Assembly (NCBI GenBank): GCA_031555325.1
Contig: JAVBUM010000031.1
Span: forward strand, 743 to 64,742
Reading direction: 5' to 3'
DNA from: Niveibacterium sp.
GTDB taxonomy: Bacteria > Pseudomonadota > Gammaproteobacteria > Burkholderiales > Rhodocyclaceae
DNA length: 64,000 nt
The notes under the pieces are model-generated. The model had not been told where the DNA came from and searched no databases. It saw only the letters and a program-made list of their open reading frames with translations. The position numbers were made by a program, and so were the translations under genes. Below, in pieces: positions 32,540 to 43,954 of this stretch. Numbering within the stretch: the first letter of the stretch is position 1; the number at the start of each line of letters is the position of its first letter.

Positions 32540-33298
32540 CTAATCCGACGTGTCCTCACTCAAGACGGCTGCCCTCAGCACCGGCCATTGCCTGCGGCTT
32601 ACGGGCAGGCGCTCATCAATCGTGTTAAGCCGTACGTTCCACTGTTCTGCTGCGTCGTCGCGCTCGAACCCCGCAATCGCTGTGCGTGCAACCAGACAAT
32701 TGCGGTGGATACGAATGAACCGCTCCGGAAACTCCTGCTCCAGATGCACCAGCGACTCATCAAGGAGGTGTTCGCGCTGTGCCGTTCGCGCGGTGACGTA
32801 CTTGAGTTCAGCCTTCAGGTAAAGCACTTCCGCGATCGGCACCAAGGTGATCCGGCCACGCTCACTGCTCGCAAAGTGACGCCGCGGCTCAGCGAATCCG
32901 TCAAGCAATTCACGCAAGACCGGCAAGCCGGCCCTGACCCGAGCTAGCGCGGCTTCGAGCCGTTGCGCCCGAACTGGCTTGAGCAGGTAGTCGATCGCGT
33001 TGAGCTCAAAGGCTGTAACTGCGTACTTGTCGTACGCAGTTGCAAAAATGATTTGCGGCGGCGAAGCCAAGCGCGACAAGTGTTGGGCAAGCTCGATGCC
33101 GTCCATGCCCGGCATTCGTATGTCCACAAACATCAGATCGGGCTTAGCCTGCTCATACAGGCGAAGCGCCTCATATCCGTTGGCCGCCAAACCAATAACG
33201 CGCGTCGGCTGCGTCACAGCCACATCGCCAAGCAAGTCTCGCAGACGCTCGCGTGCGGGGGCTTCATCATCGACGATGATTACGTCCAAGGGATTCAC
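32540..33298 (-). CDS. LytTR-family response regulator (AlgR-like)
   Basis: Receiver DDE...DIRMP, YLLKP; LytTR FIRIHRNCLV...LPVSRR. Confidence 0.93.
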   Translation of the reverse strand: MNPLDVIIVDDEAPARERLRDLLGDVAVTQPTRVIGLAANGYEALRLYEQAKPDLMFVDIRMPGMDGIELAQHLSRLASPPQIIFATAYDKYAVTAFELNAIDYLLKPVRAQRLEAALARVRAGLPVLRELLDGFAEPRRHFASSERGRITLVPIAEVLYLKAELKYVTARTAQREHLLDESLVHLEQEFPERFIRIHRNCLVARTAIAGFERDDAAEQWNVRLNTIDERLPVSRRQWPVLRAAVLSEDTSD

Positions 33299-34329
33299 TG
33301 CTGGGTATTCTCCCGTTTGATCGGCAAGCGGATGTGCACCAGGTAGCGACCGCCGCGTCGCCCGGTTTCCATGCTGGCCTCAATGTCGAAAAAGAGCGCC
33401 AGTCTTTCACGGATATTCGCTTGCGCCATGCGGTTGCCGGAACTTTGCCGCGCTTCGGCGCAAATAGGGTTGGCAATCTCGATGTGCAGTTCCCGACCCC
33501 GTCGTTCGATGCACACGTCGATGCAACCGGGCTCAGATGACGGCTCAATGCCGTGATAGACCGCATTCTCGATCAGCGGCTGGAGCATGAGAGGGGGTAC
33601 ATAGGCATCCATCGGACACTGCTTGAGGTCCCAGTTGACCGTCAGGCGTTCGCCCAGACGCAAGCGCTCTAGTTCGAGATAGCGCTCGCACAAGTCGATC
33701 TCTTCCTCGAGCAGAACAAGCCTGCGGTTTTCCTGCATGAGCGCGCGAAATAGATCAGCGAGTCCTTCGAGCGCCTGCTCGGCCCGTCGCGGGTCAGACC
33801 GGATAACACCCAGCACACCATTGATGCTGTTGAAGAAGAAGTGCGGCCGAATTCGCGCGTTGAGCGCCAGCACGCGCGCCTCAGCGATCGCAGGTGTCGC
33901 TGCACTCGCCCTCCAGTGGAAACAGCTCATCATCAACATGACAGCAACAAGGGTCCAAGCCGACCAGCGGATCAGGTCAGGCTGAAACCCGAATCGCTCC
34001 AACAAGGGCACGCTGCCAAGCAGACCGACAAGCGCCAAGCCAAAAATCATCACCGCCCCGCGGCGGAAGCCGAGCCGCTGGATCGTCGGTGCAAAGAGGT
34101 ACGCCACCACAAGTGCAAACAACAGCGGAAACTCAACGCATCCAGCCATGCCAACGATTTCGTCTGGCAATGCATCAACCTGCCGATTGCGCAGGAGCAC
34201 GGTCAGCAACGCAAACGTGTTAACCACCAGCATCGCGCGGATCGTGACTCCAAGGTTCCTGAAGTCCGGCGCGGGAATCCACCCCTTGAGAGCCACTTGG
34301 GCATCAGGCTTTTGCCGTATACTCGTCAT
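33295..34329 (-). CDS. LytS-type sensor histidine kinase (AlgZ/FimS-like)
   Basis: ALNARIRPHFFFNSIN, LQPLIENAVYHG; argH-algZ-algR-hemC synteny. Confidence 0.92.
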   Translation of the reverse strand: MTSIRQKPDAQVALKGWIPAPDFRNLGVTIRAMLVVNTFALLTVLLRNRQVDALPDEIVGMAGCVEFPLLFALVVAYLFAPTIQRLGFRRGAVMIFGLALVGLLGSVPLLERFGFQPDLIRWSAWTLVAVMLMMSCFHWRASAATPAIAEARVLALNARIRPHFFFNSINGVLGVIRSDPRRAEQALEGLADLFRALMQENRRLVLLEEEIDLCERYLELERLRLGERLTVNWDLKQCPMDAYVPPLMLQPLIENAVYHGIEPSSEPGCIDVCIERRGRELHIEIANPICAEARQSSGNRMAQANIRERLALFFDIEASMETGRRGGRYLVHIRLPIKRENTQQ

Positions 34330-34493
34330 TTCTTGGGCGCCAACGGCGCCTTTTTCTCTGCAGCCCGCTGAACCTGTGAAAACGTTGTAGTGGCTGTCCG
34401 AACCCGAAGCGGGAAGTACATCGCTGCTTCGAGATTGGCGCATCCATCCGTTGGTCTACAGGCCTTCAGCCCGCGCCAACATATTCCCTGATT

Positions 34494-35900
34494 ATGACAG
34501 AGCGTTCACCATCGTCGCAGGACAGCGAAGCCAAGGGCTGGTCCGGCCGCTTCAGCGAGCCCGTTTCCGATCTCGTCAAGCGTTTCACCGCTTCCGTATT
34601 CTTCGATTGCCGCATGGCCGAACAGGACATCCGCGGCTCACTGGCCCACGCGAAGATGCTCGCACGGCAGAACATCATCAGCGGTCAGGATCTCGCTGAT
34701 ATCGAACGCGGCATGGCACAGATCCAGGAAGAGATCCACGCGGGCAAGTTCGAATGGAGCCTTGATCTCGAAGACGTCCATCTGAACGTCGAACGGCGGC
34801 TTACGACTTTGGTCGGCGATGCGGGCAAGCGACTGCACACGGGCCGCTCACGTAACGATCAGGTCGCCACTGATATTCGCCTCTGGCTACGGGACGCGAC
34901 GGATCAAGCGATCGCCTTGCTTGCCGAATTCCAGCGTGCGCTCTGCGACATGGCCGAACAACATGCTGCGACGCCGATGCCTGGCTTCACCCACCTGCAG
35001 GTGGCGCAACCGGTAACCTTTGGCCACCATCTGATGGCCTATGTCGAAATGGCGCGGCGCGATGCCGAGCGGCTCACCGACGCCCGCCGTCGCATCAATC
35101 GTCTGCCACTGGGCGCCTCGGCACTCGCCGGCACCAGCTATCCGATCGACCGGGAATTCGTCGCCCGCGAGCTGGGTTTTGAGGCAGTCTGTGAAAACTC
35201 CCTCGACGCCGTATCGGACCGCGATTTCGCAATCGAATTCACTGCCGCCGCCGCGCTGGTCATGACACACCTGTCGCGTCTGTCTGAAGAACTGATCCTC
35301 TGGATGAGCCCGCGAGTTGGATTCATCGACTTGGCGGACCGCTTCTGCACCGGCAGCTCGATCATGCCGCAAAAAAAGAACCCAGACGTACCCGAACTCG
35401 TACGCGGCAAGACAGGGCGCGTTAACGGCCATCTCGTCGGTCTGCTCACGCTGATGAAGGGCCAGCCGCTGGCCTACAACAAGGACAATCAGGAAGACAA
35501 AGAGCCCCTGTTCGATACCGCGGACACGCTGATCGACAGCCTCCGCATCTTCACCGACATGGTCCCGGGCATCCGCGTCAAGGCCGACGCAATGCGGGAT
35601 GCGCTCAAACAGGGCTTTGCCACCGCTACCGAACTGGCCGACTACCTTGCCAAGCGTGGATTGCCGTTCCGCGACGCACACGAGGCCGTCGCGCGAGCGG
35701 TCAGGGAAGCCGAGACGCGCGGCTGCGACCTGCCGGACTTGCCGCTCGATGTGCTCAAGGGTTTCTCGAATCTGGTATCCGAGGATGTTTATCAGGTACT
35801 GACGGTCGAAGGCGCACTGGCGGGACGCAACCATATTGGCGGCACAGCCCCAGAGCAGGTTTGCGCGGCTGTTGCCCGCACCCGCGCCCGGCTCGGCTAA
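34494..35900 (+). CDS. argH: Argininosuccinate lyase
   Basis: [36 protein letters not shown]. Confidence 0.98.
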
Positions 35901-35905
35901 GCAGG

Positions 35906-36775
35906 ATGTCCGTGCTGGAGGAGGCCGTCGAAAGCGCACTGCGAGGCGTGCTTGGCACCGATTTCCGGCTTGCCGGCGACGCACTGGCCGGCAAGATCGA
36001 AGGAACACGTGGAGAGCGGTTCTTCCTAAAGTTGCGCCCTGCGGCAGAAGCCGATCGGCTTTCGGCTGAGGTGGATGGACTACGAGCCTTGGCCGAGAGC
36101 GAAACCTTCAAGGTGCCCACTATCATCGTACAAGGCGAAGTCGGTGAAACGGCTTTTCTCGCCACGGAGCATCTCGACCTGAAGCCCCTGTCCCATGCAA
36201 ATGGCGCCCATGCAGGAGAAGCACTCGCTACGCTCCACGCACCAAGGTCTGGAAGCTACGGTTGGCGGCGGGATAACTACATCGGAGCCACGCTTCAACA
36301 CAACGCCCAAAGCGAATCGTGGCCAATCTTCTTTGCTTCCCAACGATTGCGCCCGCAACTCGCGCTGGCGGCTAGCAAGGGCTACCGGGGTGCACTGCAA
36401 CAACATGGCGAGCATATCTGCGAAAAAATCGCAGCCTTCTTTCTTGAATACCGGCCCGCCCCCGCCCTGCTCCACGGCGATCTGTGGAACGGAAACATCG
36501 GTGAATTACCAGACGGGGCTCCAGCGCTTTTCGACCCTGCCGTCTGTATCGGTGACCGCGAGACGGATGTGGCGATGACCGAGCTGTTCGGTGGTTTTCC
36601 CGAAAGTTTCTATGCGACATATCGCCGTGCCCGCCCGCTCGACTTCGGCTACGAACAGCGTAAGCAGTTGTACAACCTCTACCATATGCTCAATCACCTG
36701 AATCTCTTCGGCCGCAGCTATTTACGGCAGGTGGAGTGGATGGCAACCAAGCTGTTCGACGAATTGCGCCACTAA
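35906..36775 (+). CDS. Fructosamine-kinase-family protein
   Basis: FFLK, DNYIGATLQ, LHGDLWNGN, DPAV, ELFGGF, YNLYHMLNH. Confidence 0.92.
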   Translation: MSVLEEAVESALRGVLGTDFRLAGDALAGKIEGTRGERFFLKLRPAAEADRLSAEVDGLRALAESETFKVPTIIVQGEVGETAFLATEHLDLKPLSHANGAHAGEALATLHAPRSGSYGWRRDNYIGATLQHNAQSESWPIFFASQRLRPQLALAASKGYRGALQQHGEHICEKIAAFFLEYRPAPALLHGDLWNGNIGELPDGAPALFDPAVCIGDRETDVAMTELFGGFPESFYATYRRARPLDFGYEQRKQLYNLYHMLNHLNLFGRSYLRQVEWMATKLFDELRH

Positions 36776-36996
36776 GCCCGGCACACCTCCGTCGATATTT
36801 TTGACATTTCTGGCGGCGCTCACTTATCTGCCTGGAGAGGTTTCCCGTAGGATCTTGATTAAAAAGGCAGTTTTAAAAAGAGCGCAAAGCGCACGATTTT
36901 TGCTTTTAGACTCTTGACCGGTTCTGCAAATTCCGCTCTTGTGACGTAGTTGGGTGTCTTCAGAGCGACAGCTTGTCCACAATGGCAGGACCACGA

Positions 36997-37671
36997 ATGG
37001 AAATCAGCACCATGCGAGATCAAGCCCCGAATCCGAATACTCTTCTCGACGACCAAAGCGAAACAGCGGGGCGGGACGTTCAGTCCTCAGCGCGCCGACG
37101 CTGGATCCTTCGCAGCGGCATCACGGTTGCACCCGTCATATTGACGCTGGCGAGTCGACCCGTACTGGGCAATGGGCTGGGACCCAACGGCTGTATATCG
37201 CCGTCGGCAACGCTCTCGGGCGCCTTGAGCCAAGCCACGAACCAAGTCGGTACCTGTAGCGGGGACGGTTATAGCGCTTGGAAGAGTCTGGCGACGGCAC
37301 CCATACCGCCGGATTGGGCATCGACTGAGTTTCACCCGCTTTTCTCAAGCGATGGGGGCGTTGGCAGAAAGTTCTATAGCGCTAATGTGCCCCTTAAGTT
37401 TGGCGAAATTCTCCAGCTCAACGGTACGATGGCCGGTCAGGATGCGGCGGGGAATTTCGATCAGGACTTGGTCGCAGGCCATATGATTGCGGCGTATCTG
37501 AATCTGACCCAGAAGCCTAGCTCCATATCGGACAAGGCAATGACTGTTGTCCGGCTGCTGAAGCTCTGGCGCGAATGGGCACTCACGGGGCAGTACCTTC
37601 CATACGCTGGCGCAACACCGTGGAACGGTGCGGCAATCGTAGATTACCTGACGCGCAGCCACCTCGCCTGA
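36997..37671 (+). CDS. Hypothetical protein with twin-arginine/hydrophobic leader and Cys/Ser-rich motif; candidate substrate of downstream enzymes
   Basis: SARRRWILRSGITVAPVILTLASRPVLG followed by CISPSATLSGALS; 7-bp gap to the PqqD gene; start uncertain (36997 or 37012). Confidence 0.8.
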   Translation: MEISTMRDQAPNPNTLLDDQSETAGRDVQSSARRRWILRSGITVAPVILTLASRPVLGNGLGPNGCISPSATLSGALSQATNQVGTCSGDGYSAWKSLATAPIPPDWASTEFHPLFSSDGGVGRKFYSANVPLKFGEILQLNGTMAGQDAAGNFDQDLVAGHMIAAYLNLTQKPSSISDKAMTVVRLLKLWREWALTGQYLPYAGATPWNGAAIVDYLTRSHLA

Positions 37672-37678
37672 GCATACC

Positions 37679-37939
37679 GTGCCGCGCGAACATGCCTCGC
37701 GTTGGCTAATGCGCGAGTGGGATGACGGCGCGGTCGTTTATGACCGCAAAACCGGGGACACCCACGCAATCGATCCGTTTGCGGTTGAATTCCTTTGCCT
37801 GCCCGAATCGGCACGATACGATCCGGCGCAGGCGTCAGCGCTGCTCCAGAAAAGCTTCGGCGGCGAAATTGACGCAGAAGCCCTGCGTCGTGGAATCGAC
37901 GCAGCAATCAAACAACTCCGCCGCATCGAATTGCTTTGA
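37679..37939 (+). CDS. Stand-alone PqqD/RRE-family protein (HPr-rel-A system type)
   Basis: 86 aa, GTG start; beta-strand segment WDDGAVVYDRKTGDTHAID then helices ending QLRRIELL; precedes HprK-like kinase. Confidence 0.8.
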   Translation: MPREHASRWLMREWDDGAVVYDRKTGDTHAIDPFAVEFLCLPESARYDPAQASALLQKSFGGEIDAEALRRGIDAAIKQLRRIELL

Positions 37940-38862
37940 CCCAGACCATGCGCGTCGGCGATCTATCGCGCGACGAACTGCGAAGCCGGCTCCACGGCAC
38001 GGGCCTATACTTGCGCTCGGGTCCGCTCGTATTCGACATTCACAGCCGCGAACCCGAAATCAGCAACAATCTGTCGCTGCTTTACGCGGATAGCTTGCTC
38101 GCGACAGGTGACTTCGCCGATTTCCATGTGGAGGTTCGGCGCGTCCGCGGGCTCCGTGGCAGGCTGAAGCCACAGATCGAATTCGTCATCGACGAACGTG
38201 GCCCATTCCAACCCCTACCACGCCCGCAATCCTTTGCGATGCTTGAATGGGGCATGAACTGGTGCGTTGCCACACAGTGCCACCAGTTTCTGGTCATCCA
38301 CGCTGCAGTGGTGGAGCGCAACGGATTTGCCGCAATCCTCCCTGCTCCACCCGGCTCTGGCAAGAGCACGCTTTGTGCGGCGTTGATCCACGCAGGCTGG
38401 CGCTTGTGTTCAGACGAACTGACACTGCTCGACCCGGACGATGGCATGGTCGTCGCGCTGGCCCGACCCGTGAGCCTCAAGAATGCCTCAATCGAAGTCA
38501 TCCGCGATTTCGCCCCACAGGCGATTTTCGGAGAGGAAATACCCGACACCAAGAAGGGGCGCATATCGCACCTTAAACCGCCGCGGGCGAGCATCGAGAA
38601 TGTTGCACTCCGAGCCCGTCCGCGCTGGATTGTATTTCCACAATGGGAGGCGGGCGCATCGCTGTCTCTTTTCAGCCAGCCGAAATCTCATGGATTCATC
38701 CAGCTCGCTGAAAACGCATTCAACTACAGCATGCTCGGCGAAACTGGCTTCGACCTACTCGGCCGAGTGATTAACGACAGCGAATGCCTGGGGTTGCGCT
38801 ACAGCCGACTCGATGACGCCATCGCTTGGTTCGAACGGGTCGCTGATGAGGCCAACCGATGA
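37936..38862 (+). CDS. HprK-related kinase (kinase A type)
   Basis: VIHAAVVE, Walker A APPGSGKST, GWRLCSDEL, RPVSLKN; 4-bp overlaps with both neighbours. Confidence 0.88.
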   Translation: MTQTMRVGDLSRDELRSRLHGTGLYLRSGPLVFDIHSREPEISNNLSLLYADSLLATGDFADFHVEVRRVRGLRGRLKPQIEFVIDERGPFQPLPRPQSFAMLEWGMNWCVATQCHQFLVIHAAVVERNGFAAILPAPPGSGKSTLCAALIHAGWRLCSDELTLLDPDDGMVVALARPVSLKNASIEVIRDFAPQAIFGEEIPDTKKGRISHLKPPRASIENVALRARPRWIVFPQWEAGASLSLFSQPKSHGFIQLAENAFNYSMLGETGFDLLGRVINDSECLGLRYSRLDDAIAWFERVADEANR

Positions 38863-39995
38863 TCCGCGACGCAGTACTCCCCATCATTCGCGATCCGGCC
38901 TCCGCACTTGGCCTCGGCATGCAAGGCTGGGACAACCTGTTGCGTGAGGCGTGGATCGCCAATCTTAGTGCGCGAATTGCGGAGGACCTTGCACACCTTG
39001 GACCGCCTGATCTGGTACCACCTCCGGTCCGCCCACACCTCTTGAGCGCGCGGCGGATCGCACAACGTCAACGGATCGCCACGCTCGCCGAAATCGAGCG
39101 CGTGCGGACTGCACTCGCCGATGGCGGAATCCGCCTCGTTCTGCTCAAAGGTGCGGCTTATCTTGCGGCCGACCTACCCAACGCCCTGGGACGCGTGTTC
39201 GGCGATATCGATCTGCTCGTCCCGCGAGCGTTGCTCATCGAAACCGAAGCAATGGCGCTCAAGCATGGCTGGATCGGCACCCATCATGATGCGTACGATC
39301 AGCGCTACTACCGCCAATGGATGCACGAATTGCCCCCGCTGCACCATGTAGTGCGGGAATCAACGCTCGACGTGCATCACAACATCCTGCCTGCTACAGC
39401 GAGGCGTCCGCCTGATGCAGCGCTGCTCCTGGCCGATGCAGTCGAGACCACGATTCCAGGGATCTTCGTCCTGGCTCCGCCGGACATGGTGCTCCACAGT
39501 GCCTGTCACTTGTTCCACGAGGGCGAACTGGACAATGGATTACGGGATCTCGTCGATCTGGATGGTCTGCTGCGCCATTTCGGCGGTACGCCGGATTTTT
39601 GGGATCGCCTCGAAACACGAGCTGGCGCCCTGCACCTCGAACGCCCGCTACGCTATGCGCTTCGGATGTGCGAACTGATGCTGGGGACACCATTCCCACG
39701 CCCACTGCTTGATAACCATGCACCTTGGCCCGCCGATTTCCGCGAGCGCATGCTGGAGCAGCTCTACCTGCGCGGACTCCGCCCCAACCACCCGTTGGCC
39801 GGCGACCGCTGGACACCACTCGCCCGCTGGTTGTTGTATGTACGCGGCCACTGGCTGCGCATGCCGCCTCACTTGCTCGCTGCTCATCTCTCCCGCAAGG
39901 CATGGCTACGTTGGACAGGTTTTGAATTCGGCTCGGACCACCGCGAAGAAGCCGAGATCCTGAAAGCAAAACCCCGGTCTGAAGACCGGGGTTAA
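38859..39995 (+). CDS. Nucleotidyltransferase family protein (NTP_transf_5-like)
   Basis: LLKGAAYL, RVFGDIDLLV (DxD), DVHHNI, HSACHLF, LRDLVDL. Confidence 0.87.
   Translation: MIRDAVLPIIRDPASALGLGMQGWDNLLREAWIANLSARIAEDLAHLGPPDLVPPPVRPHLLSARRIAQRQRIATLAEIERVRTALADGGIRLVLLKGAAYLAADLPNALGRVFGDIDLLVPRALLIETEAMALKHGWIGTHHDAYDQRYYRQWMHELPPLHHVVRESTLDVHHNILPATARRPPDAALLLADAVETTIPGIFVLAPPDMVLHSACHLFHEGELDNGLRDLVDLDGLLRHFGGTPDFWDRLETRAGALHLERPLRYALRMCELMLGTPFPRPLLDNHAPWPADFRERMLEQLYLRGLRPNHPLAGDRWTPLARWLLYVRGHWLRMPPHLLAAHLSRKAWLRWTGFEFGSDHREEAEILKAKPRSEDRG
39970..39993 (-). terminator. Probable grxD terminator lying inside the last codons of the convergent nucleotidyltransferase gene
   Basis: AACCCCGGTC-TGAA-GACCGGGGTT perfect stem; T run follows on the minus strand. 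Confidence 0.65.
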
Positions 39996-40014: not shown

Positions 40015-40341
40015 TCAAGCGCCGACGACGCCGGCTCCCTCCAGCAGCTTCTGCAGCTCGCCGGACTGGTACATCTCCTTCATGATGTCGCAGCCGCCAA
40101 GGAATTCACCACCAACGTAGAGCTGGGGGATCGTCGGCCAATTCGCATACTCCTTGATACCTTGGCGTACATCTCCGTCTTCCAGAACATTCACCGAAAA
40201 GTAGCTCGTCACGCCACACAGTTTGAGAATCTGTGCTGCGGTCGACGAGAAGCCGCATTGCGGAAACTGCGGCGTACCCTTCATGTACAGCACGACCGGG
40301 TTGCTGGTGACGGTCTGATGGATACGATCCTGCACGCTCAT
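40015..40341 (-). CDS. grxD: Monothiol glutaredoxin Grx4
   Basis: MKGTPQFPQCGFS, WPTIPQLY, GGCDI. Confidence 0.97.
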   Translation of the reverse strand: MSVQDRIHQTVTSNPVVLYMKGTPQFPQCGFSSTAAQILKLCGVTSYFSVNVLEDGDVRQGIKEYANWPTIPQLYVGGEFLGGCDIMKEMYQSGELQKLLEGAGVVGA

Positions 40342-40492
40342 GTTCTGTCCTTCCAATTTCGTGGGCGGGGCACTGGGCACCCGAAAACCTTGCTTCAGAT
40401 CCATTGAAGCGAAGGCAAATACTTGAGTAATTTGATCGGGTTCTAAGTGTAAGAAAACCCGCCACAGGCGTCAAACAGAACCACGTCATCCT

Positions 40493-41380
40493 CTATTCCG
40501 GCCACTGCCCAAGACTGACACGCTCGATGCCCGCCAGATCGTGCAACGACTTGATCTCGCGGAACCCTGCGTCCAAGAGCAGATTCCGGACAGCGGAAGA
40601 TTGGTCATAACCATGCTCAAGCAACAGCCACCCACCTGATGCCAGATGTGCTGGCGCTACCTGGATAATGTGACGGATATCCCGCAGGCCATCGGGTCCC
40701 GAGACCAGCGCTGCCAGAGGCTCGCAGAGCAGGTCTCCTCGCCCAAGGTGTGGATCCTGGTCGGCGATATAGGGCGGATTCGCAACCAGCAAATCAAACC
40801 GTTCACCGGGTAGCGCGGAATACCAGTCGCTCCGAACGAAATACACTCTCGCACTGAGGGTCGCTGCATTTTCGCGTGCGATTTCCAAGGCCCTGTCGGA
40901 TGCGTCGACCGCCCACACCTCGGCAGTTGGCGCCTCACACGCGAGGCTGACCGCAATCGCTCCGCTACCCGTGCCGAGATCAAGCACCCGCGCGCGCGCC
41001 TTCGAAAGTCGCTCCAATGCTGCGTCAACTAACAGTTCTGTTTCGGGGCGGGGAATGAGAACACCAGGCCCAACGGTGAAGCGACGGCCGTAGAACTCGC
41101 GCCACCCGATGATGTATGCGATCGGTTCGCCACGCTCCCGCTGGGCAACCCAATCGAAGAACATTGTCGCCGCAACGGGATCAAGCAAACGCTCCGGGAA
41201 CGCAATCACCGCTGCGGCACTGGCACCACTGGCCTCACGCAAAAGCAGTCTGGCCTCGGCTTGGGTGATACGTAGCCGCGCTGTCGTAAGCGCCTCGCCA
41301 AAGCTCCAGTCGCGGCTCACTTGCGTGCTATCGCTGTGTGCAGCGGCACTTGGGTTATCAAGCTCATGCGGTGGACGCAT
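40493..41380 (-). CDS. prmC: Release factor glutamine methyltransferase
   Basis: GEPIAYI, LIPRPETE, DLGTGSG, NPPY, EHGYDQ; alternative GTG start at 41320. Confidence 0.95.
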   Translation of the reverse strand: MRPPHELDNPSAAAHSDSTQVSRDWSFGEALTTARLRITQAEARLLLREASGASAAAVIAFPERLLDPVAATMFFDWVAQRERGEPIAYIIGWREFYGRRFTVGPGVLIPRPETELLVDAALERLSKARARVLDLGTGSGAIAVSLACEAPTAEVWAVDASDRALEIARENAATLSARVYFVRSDWYSALPGERFDLLVANPPYIADQDPHLGRGDLLCEPLAALVSGPDGLRDIRHIIQVAPAHLASGGWLLLEHGYDQSSAVRNLLLDAGFREIKSLHDLAGIERVSLGQWPE

Positions 41381-41385
41381 GATGC

Positions 41386-42468
41386 TTACTCGCTCTCGGT
41401 CAGTGCAGCCAGCAGCTCCGCTCGATGCTCAGCGCGCAAGGCTTCAATCACTTCGCCGATATCTCCATCCATGGCAGCATCAAGCTTATACAGCGTGACA
41501 TTGATCCGATGGTCGGTAATCCGGCCCTGCGGAAAGTTGTAGGTCCGAATCCGCTCGGAGCGGTCACCGCTTCCGACCAGACTCTTGCGCGTAGCAGCCT
41601 CCTTCGCCTGCTGCTCACGCATCTGCACATCTTTGATGCGCGCCGCTAGCACAGCAAGCGCCTGGGCCTTATTGCGGTGTTGCGATCGGTCATCCTGGCA
41701 TTCAACGACGATGCCTGTTGGCAAATGCGTAATTCGAACAGCAGAGTCGGTCTTGTTGATGTGTTGTCCACCGGCGCCGCTTGCACGAAAGGTGTCGATC
41801 CGGATCTCAGCCGGGTTGATCGCCACTTCACCAAGCTCATCAGCCTCCGGCATCACGGCAACGGTGCAGGCCGAGGTATGAATCCGGCCCTGCGTTTCAG
41901 TAACCGGCACGCGCTGCACACGATGCCCACCCGATTCAAATTTGAGCTTTGAGTACGCATCATTGCCAACAATCCGCAGGATGACTTCCTTGTACCCCCC
42001 TAGGTCCGATTCACTAGCGGATACAATCTCCACGCGCCACCCTTGGCGTTCGGCGTAGCGAGTATACATTCGCAGCAAATCGCCAGCGAACAGGGCTGCC
42101 TCTTCGCCCCCCGTCCCGGCTCGGATTTCAAGAAAGAGATTTCGCGCGTCGTTAGGGTCTCGCGGCAGCAGGGCGCACTGTAGTTCGCCATCGAGTCTGG
42201 CAACTTCAACTCTGGCCACATCGATTTCTTCGACAGCCAGATCCTTCATCTCAGGATCGGCAAGCAGCTCCTGCGCACTCCGGCCAGCGTCCTCAGCCCG
42301 CAGGTAGTCTTGCCAGAGGGCAACGATCGGAGCGAGTTCCGAATGCTCGCGATTCAGTTTACGGTAGCGATCGATATCGCTGACTGCATCCTCCGCTCCG
42401 AGCAAGCCATCGAGTTCAGCGAGACGATGCGCAAGATGTTCGAGCTTTTCCCGAATACTGAGTTTCAT
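41386..42468 (-). CDS. prfA: Peptide chain release factor 1
   Basis: [11 protein letters not shown] specificity motif, [15 protein letters not shown]. Confidence 0.98.
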
Positions 42469-42503
42469 GACGGAAAGATGAGGTGCGGTCGCGGTAGCGA
42501 CGA

Positions 42504-43754
42504 CTAGGAGCGGTCGAGATTGAAAAGCCGGCGCACGAGATCAGACGACTCGGCAATCTGATCCCGCTCGGCACGGTTCAAGAACTGGGTCGGCGCATGC
42601 ATCAGCTTGTTGGTGATCCCTTGAGACAGCGCTTCAAGCAACGCCTTGGGATCCTCTCCACGAGCAAGGCGCTGGAGCGCCCTTTCGAGCTCAATTCGAC
42701 GCAGATCTTCGGCTTGACCGCGCAGCGCGCGAATCACGGGTACCGCTTCGCGTGCCTCGACCCAATGCAGGAAGTCCGACACCTCCCCCGAAATGATGGC
42801 TTCGGCCTCGCTCACTGCCTGACGGCGAGAGTCAATGCCAGCGGCCACAATCTGCGCGAGATCATCAACGGTGTAGAGGAAAACATCATCGAGATCACGG
42901 ATTTCGACTTCGACATCGCGCGGTACCGCAAGGTCGACCATAACGATCGGGCGGTGGCGGCGACTCTTGATAGCCCGCTCGACCATGCCGAGCCCAATGA
43001 CTGGCAGTGGGCTCCCTGTACAGCTCACGACGATGTCGTAGTGCACCAACTGCTCAGGGAGCGCCTCAAGCGTAATCGCCTGTCCGCCGAATCGTGCGGC
43101 GAGCCCCTCGGCACGCGACAGCGTACGGTTGGCAATAGTCAATCGACGTGGCCCGCAGCCAGCGAAATGGGCGGCACACAGCTCAATCATCTCGCCAGCC
43201 CCCACGAAGAGGACATTCTGGTCGCCGACTGAACCGAAGATCCGCTCCGACATACGTACTGCCGCCGCAGCCATCGATACTACATTGCTCCCGATCGCCG
43301 TCGACGAACGAACCTCCTTAGCCACAGCAAACGTCTTCTGGAACAGCTTATGCAGTAGCGTTCCAAGCGTTCCTGCACGCTCGGCGGTCCGAGCCGCCTC
43401 CTTCATCTGACCAAGGATCTGCGGCTCGCCCAGCACCATGGAATCGAGGCCGGACGCGACACGGAACATGTGGCGCACGGCATCTGCATGAGGCAGAGTG
43501 AACAAATGGGGCGCAAGTTGAGGCAGTTCGACCCGATGCCAGTCCGCCAGCCAGTCAGCGACAGCTTCTGGCGCTTCAGTTGCGCAATACAGTTCGGTGC
43601 GGTTGCAAGTCGATAGAATCGCCGCTTCGCGAACGGGACGCTTGTGGACCAAGCTACCGAGCGCCTCCATCAATCGCTCCGGCTGGAACGCCACACGCTC
43701 CCGCAACGCGAGCGGCGCGGAATGGTGATTGATGCCAAGGGCGAACAGGGCCAT
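42504..43754 (-). CDS. hemA: Glutamyl-tRNA reductase
   Basis: [39 protein letters not shown]. Confidence 0.97.
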
Positions 43755-43954
43755 TGATGAACCGGACATGGTTTCGTACAGATTCGAGCGAATATCGATC
43801 AGAAAGCAGCCAATCTAAACCGGATCAGCCACCACCGATCCCCTTCGCGTCCGCGCTGCGCAAGGCTTTGCTAGCCGCCAACGCGGGATTCTACCACCCG
43901 CCTCCGCACGGCATCGAACATGAACATGTCGCAAAAGGCCCGTATTTCACAACA

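Follow-up and report, generated by a model that had tools for sequence, protein, structure and literature searches.

A candidate leader-guided protein-modification operon with a Tat-type leader in Niveibacterium sp.

What does the HPr-rel-A enzyme trio act on? Curated models for the trio exist (TIGR04352, TIGR04353), but no family model covers a substrate. A four-gene operon of Niveibacterium sp. raises the question directly. It lies in a 64,000-nucleotide stretch of assembly GCA_031555325.1 (contig JAVBUM010000031.1, positions 743 to 64,742 of the forward strand; hereafter the window, to which all coordinates refer) and encodes, in order, a leader-bearing protein (ORF1, for open reading frame 1), a PqqD-family protein, an HprK-related kinase and a nucleotidyltransferase-fold enzyme (NTase) (Table 1). 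A sequence-only reading of this stretch had proposed that ORF1 is the substrate of the other three, in the manner of a ribosomally synthesised and posttranslationally modified peptide (RiPP), with the PqqD protein serving as a stand-alone RiPP recognition element (RRE). Here, ORF1 emerges as by far the best substrate candidate, and we consider a leader-guided, RiPP-like modification of ORF1 to be, for the mechanism chain as a whole, slightly favoured by what follows. Beyond the sequence-only reading, we describe the Tat-signal features of the leader, its presence on unrelated cores including short peptides, and a link to exosortase A. A conserved leader-bearing candidate substrate makes the HPr-rel-A trio directly testable.

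Linkage of ORF1 to the enzyme trio

ORF1 matched no Pfam or NCBIfam model and had just eight word-sharing relatives among 5.8 billion clusters; the three whose contigs were looked up belong to the same four-gene block. For comparison, 80 loci encoding kinase relatives (45-78% identity) were fetched from Beta- and Gammaproteobacteria, with 83 related loci considered in all. Single-sequence tblastn placed ORF1 beside about 45 of the fetched loci, and an iterated ORF1 profile matched in 82 of the 83 (E 1e-17 to 1e-71). A finding that homologous operons mostly lack a protein with a twin-arginine (RR) leader would have spoken against the sequence-only reading; this is not the case, because the profile matches nearly every locus. 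In about 75 of the 83, ORF1 lies directly upstream of the PqqD gene and the same gene order recurs, while in six Thiobacillus/Hydrogenophilales-type loci (L016, L029, L031, L032, L043, and L051) it lies directly downstream of the NTase gene, in the order prmC-PqqD-kinase-NTase-ORF1. Such an arrangement is far beyond chance. Frequencies of neighbouring genes are lower bounds, because greedy ORF calling in these GC-rich loci is contaminated by shadow ORFs.

The same linkage was seen in 300 genomes sampled evenly across the class. TIGR04352 scored above its cut-off in 21, with an adjacent ORF1 match in 17; three of the remaining four carried an adjacent RR-leader gene with another core, and the fourth locus was ended by a contig edge. 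Full-length ORF1 occurred in none of the 279 kinase-less genomes. ORF1-type genes and the trio are almost never found apart, and no extra precursor copies were found near cassettes or elsewhere in the Niveibacterium genome.

The sole locus without ORF1, L082, has no PqqD gene either. There, a type IV pilin-like gene (L082:5255-5770, + strand) and a large PilY1-like ORF, both named by their sequences, precede the kinase relative, and the locus may be a rearranged or decaying copy.

A Tat-type leader and its cores

The ORF1 leader reads S-A-R33-R34-R-W-I-L-R, followed by the h-region SGITVAPVILTLA and by S53-R-P-V-L-G58. It is the best-conserved segment of ORF1, with 2.69 bits per column at residues 31-58 versus 1.80 in the folded domain. 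In ordinary signal peptides the pattern is inverted, with the mature domain better conserved. The sequence-only reading had singled out the surroundings of APVILTL as the leader, and these fall within this most conserved part. Across 80 sequences R33 is conserved in 99%, R34 in 100%, and S53 in 96%; in an alignment of 50 ORF1 members (A1), R33, R34, S70, and S74 are the four invariant positions, and conservation reaches 90% or more at S53, C66, S78, W101, L168, N169, and W209. The family consensus runs RRRF(T/L)(K/R)xG, h-region, V(I/L)xTLxS(R/Q)P(V/A)(L/M)(G/A), 2-7 residues, C-x-(S/T)-P-S-x3-S-x3-S, C-x-G-x-S-P-G-Y-W ... W-P, and then a helical domain; that of the leader is RRRFxKxGxAAxPV(I/L)xTLxSRPVLG.

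Judged from its sequence, the leader carries all formal features of a twin-arginine translocation (Tat) signal peptide. The RR motif follows a polar n-region (RRRF(T/L)(K/R) in the family, SARRRWILR in the window) and matches the S/T-R-R-x-F-L-K-like Tat motif, hydrophobicity in the h-region is moderate, 56% of members have a basic c-region residue (R or K, column 54), and all 80 sequences carry V/A/G/S at -3 (column 56) and G/A at -1 (column 58). The genome encodes TatC (233.8 bits). A leader-only hidden Markov model (HMM) had a single match in its own genome, this ORF (E 2.4e-12; next best 0.0095), and the three other Tat-like signals that a strict pattern found there were not among its matches. 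As no second ORF of the genome matches the model, the leader represents a distinct family of sequences, and a generic Tat signal was ruled out as the cause of its conservation.

The leader is retained where the core is not. In 5 of the 21 kinase-positive sampled genomes, the gene adjacent to the trio keeps the leader and carries another core, the leaders before these divergent cores including SRRKLLRGLAAGVPAIATLHVGPSAA, RRRLIRGASALPMLLTLRSKGLAA, SRRKFLKGASLTLPAIVTLHNGTALAA, and TRRRIMKGMAVVPAVLTLHSGKAMA. Unrelated, Cys-containing cores follow the leader in L090, L092, L093, and L095. The extreme is a 74-aa ORF (L094:3032-3256, + strand) with the same twin-arginine leader, ending ...MRRRKLLKTGIVAVPAVMTLHSSVAAAGSACISCNASLI; ...MRRRKLLKTGIVAVPAVMTLHSSVAAAG-SACISCNASLI. 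Its core is the 11 residues SACISCNASLI, with no space for a larger domain ahead of the PqqD gene; the PqqD and kinase genes follow directly, and the NTase gene is divergent upstream. From this setting, the ORF reads as a true mini-precursor of the same system. Close to the predicted cleavage site, all five divergent cores carry a Ser (1-3 residues away) and a Cys (no more than seven residues away). A search of 1.84 billion representatives with the leader-only profile (A3) gave 1936 matching proteins (E<=1e-3), in each of which the match lies near the N terminus; the best 150 of these are 59-385 aa long, bar one repetitive outlier of 2981 aa, and some of the short matches are probably fragments. 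A constant leader ahead of a variable core has, at the level of sequence, the signature of a RiPP-type precursor family.

In the usual core, the leader is followed by a serine loop, C66-I-S-P-S70-A-T-L-S74-G-A-L-S78 ... C87. S70 and S74 are conserved in 97-99% of the 80 sequences and spaced exactly four residues apart in every one, and S78, C66, and C87 are conserved in 94%, 91%, and 86%, respectively. Counted from the predicted cleavage site, the Cys occupies positions +3 to +8, and S70 is mostly found at +7 to +9. In the AlphaFold2 (AF2) model, the mature domain of about 150-165 aa is helical with a predicted local distance difference test score (pLDDT) of 80-96, and the leader is disordered. 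The fold of this domain found no match in the PDB (best E 2.2).

The helical domain (GC-x-PGYW ... AAxLNA ...) is found as well at the C terminus of secreted proteins about 475-600 aa long (L087:1420-2937, - strand; L088:1217-3001, - strand; L089:226-1653, + strand). These have neither leader nor serine loop, no cassette lies beside them, and their genomes lack one.

Enzymes, related systems, and rival explanations

The families that the sequence-only reading had named were recovered by HMM search. The kinase, single copy in the genome, scored 368.7 bits against TIGR04352 (cut-off 200), with weak matches also to ScmC and to HPr(Ser) kinase; the PqqD protein scored 43.7 bits against TIGR04353 (HPr-rel-A system PqqD family peptide chaperone; cut-off 35), and the NTase 186 bits against PF14907 (cut-off 31). 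Only PF05402 (PqqD) stayed below threshold, at 14.6 bits. With both models above their curated cut-offs and the genes adjacent, the kinase and PqqD protein are members of the HPr-rel-A system. The PDB held no useful relative of the kinase, just a faint HprK match (E 0.11), and no relative of the NTase with a solved structure. For the PqqD protein, AF2 modelling of a relative with 65% identity gave the RRE fold, a beta3-alpha3 winged helix (strands E229-234, E237-242, and E247-251, then helices). The model's top Foldseek matches in the PDB were TbiB1 with bound leader peptide (5v1u, 5v1v; probability 0.95-1.0, TM score 0.61-0.64), followed by the RRE of the sactipeptide synthase CteB. The models thereby favour the proposal that the stand-alone PqqD protein is an RRE.

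The closest characterised system is that of the linear polyphosphorylated peptides (LPPs) of Bacillota (Nat Commun 2026; PMC13381572), comprising a precursor (LppA), an RRE (LppB), an HprK-like kinase (LppK), an NTP_transf_5 enzyme (LppN), an SpI-type peptidase (LppS), and an MsbA-like exporter (LppD). LppK places several phosphates on core Ser3, LppN showed no detectable activity in a heterologous host, and the precursors (35-200 aa) combine a conserved leader with variable C termini. The clusters are located in capsular polysaccharide loci, the archaeal-type SpI leader peptidase is the feature that defines the family, and the supplement assigns the transferase to Pfam NTP_transf_5 and the RRE to Pfam PqqD; the main text contains none of the words Proteobacteria, Pseudomonadota, or Gram-negative (PMC13381572).

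The Niveibacterium cassette resembles this set in its discrete PqqD-type RRE, HprK-like kinase, and PF14907 enzyme without a lasso cyclase (the kinases being likened by description), in its conserved N-terminal leader with variable C termini, in candidate serines that, like Ser3, would lie a few residues past the site of leader cleavage, and in the predicted removal of the leader by signal-peptidase-type chemistry. The earlier suggestion that the kinase phosphorylates a Ser near the leader/core junction thus has, by analogy, an experimental precedent in the LPPs (PMC13381572). The leaders themselves differ: YxxPxVLxHQxIxFETxxS in the LPPs, a twin-arginine signal (RR, h-region, V/A-x-G/A) here. 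Neither an SpI peptidase nor an MsbA-like exporter is present in the cassette or its conserved neighbourhood, and no peptidase or transporter was among the gene clusters conserved across 81-83 related loci; export here presumably proceeds by Tat, with cleavage by a housekeeping peptidase. The host is proteobacterial rather than a member of the Bacillota, and the usual core, known from sequence, takes the form of a folded domain (about 165 aa) that carries a C-x-S-P-S-x3-S-x3-S loop. The polysaccharide-locus association of the LPPs has its parallel here in the exosortase A/PEP-CTERM link described below.

The combination of an RRE, an HprK-like kinase, and an NTP transferase was first described in paeninodin-type lasso peptide clusters (PMC8498205). 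The HprK-family kinases PadeK (paeninodin) and PsmK (pseudomycoidin) (poly)phosphorylate a precursor Ser, before further maturation and with a B1 RRE that binds the leader (PMC8498205, PMC6993621), much as proposed for ORF1, and addition of one or two hexoses (+162/+324 Da) to the phosphoserine depends on the NTP transferase PsmN (PMC6993621). Unlike those clusters, the present substrate candidate is a protein with an export signal, and there is no ABC exporter; the lasso B2 peptidase (PF13471) is absent from this 100% complete genome, and nothing resembling a cyclase is conserved near the 81-83 related loci, the cyclase itself not having been searched for.

To the HPr-rel-A models (TIGR04352 and TIGR04353), which name two proteins only, the present analysis adds the candidate substrate family and its Tat-type leader. 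No paper citing either model was found in the literature searched, and a search for PF14907 likewise yielded nothing on this system. Holding of a twin-arginine signal by a small cytoplasmic protein has a parallel in TorD, DmsD, and NapD, Tat redox-enzyme maturation chaperones that retain such signals until the cargo is finished. The proposal for ORF1 shares with them a dedicated cargo held by its RR signal during cytoplasmic maturation; it differs in the unrelated fold, here an RRE winged helix, and in covalent Ser modification in place of cofactor insertion. By sequence comparison, the substrate family, the Tat-type signal as leader, the protein-sized cores, and the exosortase A link appear to be new, and HPr-rel-A membership and the LPP/lasso-like gene set were known.

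Co-occurrence with exosortase A (XrtA) was pronounced. XrtA is encoded in this genome on another contig (351 bits) and scored above cut-off in 17 of the 21 kinase-positive sampled genomes versus 31 of the 279 others (odds ratio 34, Fisher p 7e-12). In several complete genomes, the cassette lies within 29-108 kb of xrtA, and in some Massilia and Undibacterium loci it abuts genes of a PEP-CTERM locus, which, as named from their sequences, encode a tetratricopeptide repeat (TPR) lipoprotein, a chain-length determinant, a polysaccharide export protein, and an N-acyl amino acid synthase-like protein. Three kinase-positive genomes, of which two are 99-100% and one is 81% complete, gave no XrtA match at E <= 1e-50, and in a fourth (75% complete) the match was sub-threshold.

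Building on the linkage, the conservation of the leader, its modularity with respect to the core, the invariant serines, the RRE fold of the PqqD protein, and the metatranscriptome contig from the region, we propose the following course of events. The PqqD/RRE protein would bind the leader in the cytoplasm, around V-I-L-T-L-A-S-R-P, and present the adjacent loop to the HprK-like kinase, which would place phosphate on S70, S74, or S78, possibly repeatedly, a step modelled on LppK (core Ser3) and on PadeK/PsmK (lasso precursors). Next, the PF14907 enzyme would build on the phosphate, adding most probably a sugar, for which pseudomycoidin is the precedent, and with lower probability a nucleotide. 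Tat would export the protein once it is modified and folded, and the general signal peptidase would cut after G58, leaving the decorated serines near the new N terminus; the product may work in concert with the exosortase A/PEP-CTERM exopolysaccharide system in the envelope or matrix.

In a wider form, which we consider somewhat less likely than not, the Tat signal would double as a RiPP leader: the RRE would hold its dedicated cargo while a (poly)phosphate-sugar or phosphate-nucleotide is built on the junction serines, with Tat export to follow, in a large family (at least 1,900 sequence clusters) that is tied to the exosortase A/PEP-CTERM matrix, represents a Gram-negative counterpart of the LPPs, and is absent from the literature searched. 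If true, polyphosphorylated-peptide chemistry would no longer be confined to Bacillota and to peptides but would include Proteobacteria and folded proteins, and an export signal would serve as a RiPP leader read by an RRE. The modification would also be tied to the exosortase-dependent formation of floc or biofilm matrix, a process that is, to our knowledge, poorly understood in biochemical terms, and a second handle on the function of PF14907 enzymes would be gained.

Several points weigh against leader-guided modification of ORF1. The reading of the proteobacterial cassette rests on sequence, models, and analogy, and the conserved adjacency would also fit a partner protein instead of a substrate. 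We know of no precedent for Tat export of a phosphorylated or glycosylated protein, and the invariant RR might serve RRE binding and not export. Docking of the leader was viewed through natural read-through, as 16 loci share one frame for ORF1 and PqqD, with the 1-3 intervening stop codons read as Gly. In the AF2 model of such a chain from the closest relative, V-L-T-L of the leader (V47-L51 in the window, the APVILTL region) turns into a beta-strand that is absent from the model of ORF1 alone, but its pLDDT is below 50 and contacts are not visible. The S70/S74/S78 loop is limited to the ORF1-type core and is not common to all leader-bearing cores. Because just 3 of 80 ORF1 proteins end in Ser, a paeninodin-like C-terminal target was ruled out, and the modified site must differ from that of the lasso peptides, though Ser3 of the LPPs fits. 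The RNA evidence given below is an assembled metatranscriptome contig, and the library may carry DNA.

The main rival, which we think unlikely, casts ORF1 as a Tat-exported partner, a periplasmic or matrix protein, in the exosortase A exopolysaccharide pathway and the PqqD protein as merely a signal-peptide proofreading chaperone, with the kinase and NTase acting on some other target, such as a sugar-phosphate or lipid-linked polysaccharide intermediate or PEP-CTERM proteins. The strong XrtA co-occurrence, the placement of cassettes beside PEP-CTERM genes or near xrtA, and the ORF1 helical domain at the end of large secreted proteins with no trio nearby are all consistent with it, as is the resemblance of the PF14907 fold to small-molecule nucleotidyltransferases (a Phyre2 result cited in PMC6993621). 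However, it leaves unexplained why the leader is kept while cores are swapped, down to 11 residues, and why the junction serines are invariant; moreover, all characterised kinase relatives act on ribosomal peptides (PMC13381572, PMC6993621), and XrtA was unmatched in three kinase-positive genomes and sub-threshold in a fourth.

Other alternatives concern the chemistry or the origin of the trio. The sequence-only reading had the NTase add a nucleoside monophosphate (NMP) to the phosphoserine, yielding a phospho-nucleotidylated exported protein. Nucleotidyl transfer is the default chemistry of the PF14907-type fold, and the Pol-beta-type G-x-D-x-D metal site is present as GDIDLLV; even so, this outcome seems improbable to us. 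It is without precedent, the sole functional datum for the family, PsmN, being for hexose and not nucleotide (PMC6993621), and LppN having shown no activity (PMC13381572); the sequence does not distinguish sugar from nucleotide chemistry. Conversion of the phosphoserine, or its nucleotidylated form, to dehydroalanine and capture by C66 or C87 as a thioether, as in class III/IV lanthipeptides, would account for the conserved Cys near the serines and for Ser and Cys right behind the leader in all five divergent cores, SACISCNASLI included. We nevertheless rate it very unlikely, as Pfam and NCBIfam scans found no lyase or cyclase homologue in the cassette, kinase relatives leave a stable (poly)phosphate (PMC13381572), and the Cys pair may be a plain periplasmic disulfide. 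The lasso origin of the first described trios (PMC8498205) would allow the genes to be a remnant or trans-acting tailoring set of a lasso cluster with ORF1 an unrelated neighbour. This has next to no credence: a lasso remnant was ruled out because the genome lacks a B2 peptidase and neither a cyclase nor an exporter is conserved nearby, and ORF1 is tied to the trio in 82 of 83 loci.

Gene layout, flanks, and transcription

The ORF list bears out the compact layout described earlier, with four co-oriented genes at 36997-39995 on the + strand separated by one 7-bp gap and two 4-bp overlaps. The ATG of ORF1 at 36997 is preceded by AGGA 6 nt upstream, and an alternative, longer start (TTG) lies at 36973. 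The operon had been described as a block inserted between housekeeping genes behind its own AT-rich region of about 220 bp. An upstream spacer of that size exists, but at a GC content of 0.49, versus 0.60 in the operon and 0.59 in the window, it is only modestly AT-rich, which is usual for intergenic promoter regions; no match to the sigma-70 consensus was found on its + strand. The flanks are indeed housekeeping genes; insertion is another matter. Because the four genes, with a GC content of 0.59-0.62, match their flanks in composition and the block also follows argH and the fructosamine kinase gene in Niveibacterium relatives, the operon is an old resident, and recent horizontal insertion was ruled out.

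Table 1. Positions of the operon, its sequence features, and the flanking genes in the window
Feature	Positions	Strand	Remarks
argH	34494-35900		Upstream flank
Fructosamine kinase gene	35861-36775		Upstream flank
Upstream spacer	36776-36996	+	221 bp, GC 0.49; presumably promoter and ribosome-binding site
ORF1	36997-37671	+	224 aa; candidate precursor/substrate: N-region, twin-arginine leader, serine loop, helical domain
ORF1 leader, residues 31-58	37087-37170	+	Tat-signal form; -3/-1 positions fit signal peptidase I
ORF1 serine loop	37192-37263	+	Candidate modification sites just past predicted cleavage site
PqqD-family RRE protein	37679-37939	+	86 aa; 7 bp after ORF1; TIGR04353 match
HprK-related kinase A	37936-38862	+	308 aa; 4-bp overlap with PqqD gene; TIGR04352 match
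Walker A motif PPGSGKST of kinase	38347-38370	+	Sequence motif
NTP_transf_5 nucleotidyltransferase-fold enzyme (NTase)	38859-39995	+	378 aa; 4-bp overlap with kinase gene; PF14907 match
NTase metal-binding motif GDIDLLV (G-x-D-x-D)	39201-39221	+	Sequence motif
grxD	40015-40404	-	Downstream flank, then prmC, prfA, hemA on the same other strand

Two features of the surroundings recur in related loci. Upstream of argH, the window encodes a LytS-type sensor histidine kinase (33295-34443, - strand), named from its sequence and from the position of PF06580-carrying counterparts; in Niveibacterium loci L001 and L003, a LytTR response regulator adjoins the LytS-type counterpart. The genes hemA-prfA-prmC repeatedly adjoin the cassette and in the window (40015-43769) lie just downstream on the other strand, an adjacency that may reflect synteny or a functional link.

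An invertebrate-gut metatranscriptome contains 97% of the sampled words. One of its contigs, of 3523 nt, corresponds to 36077-39599 and runs from inside the fructosamine kinase gene through the spacer, ORF1, and the PqqD and kinase genes to 741 nt into the NTase gene, with a word depth of 41.8 versus about 6 on both sides. The contig fits co-transcription of the operon genes.

The NTase ORF contains, some 400 nt ahead of its stop codon, a terminator-like hairpin at 39579-39595 (+ strand; TTCGGCGGTACGCCGGA, then TTTTTGG). The end of the contig at 39599 and the drop in depth from 41.8 to 6.0 coincide with it, which could be due to chance, an assembly break, or attenuation. At positions 38042 and 38118, the contig has G where the window DNA has A and C, respectively; a DNA run matches the window, and the two mismatches probably stem from a co-occurring strain and not from editing.

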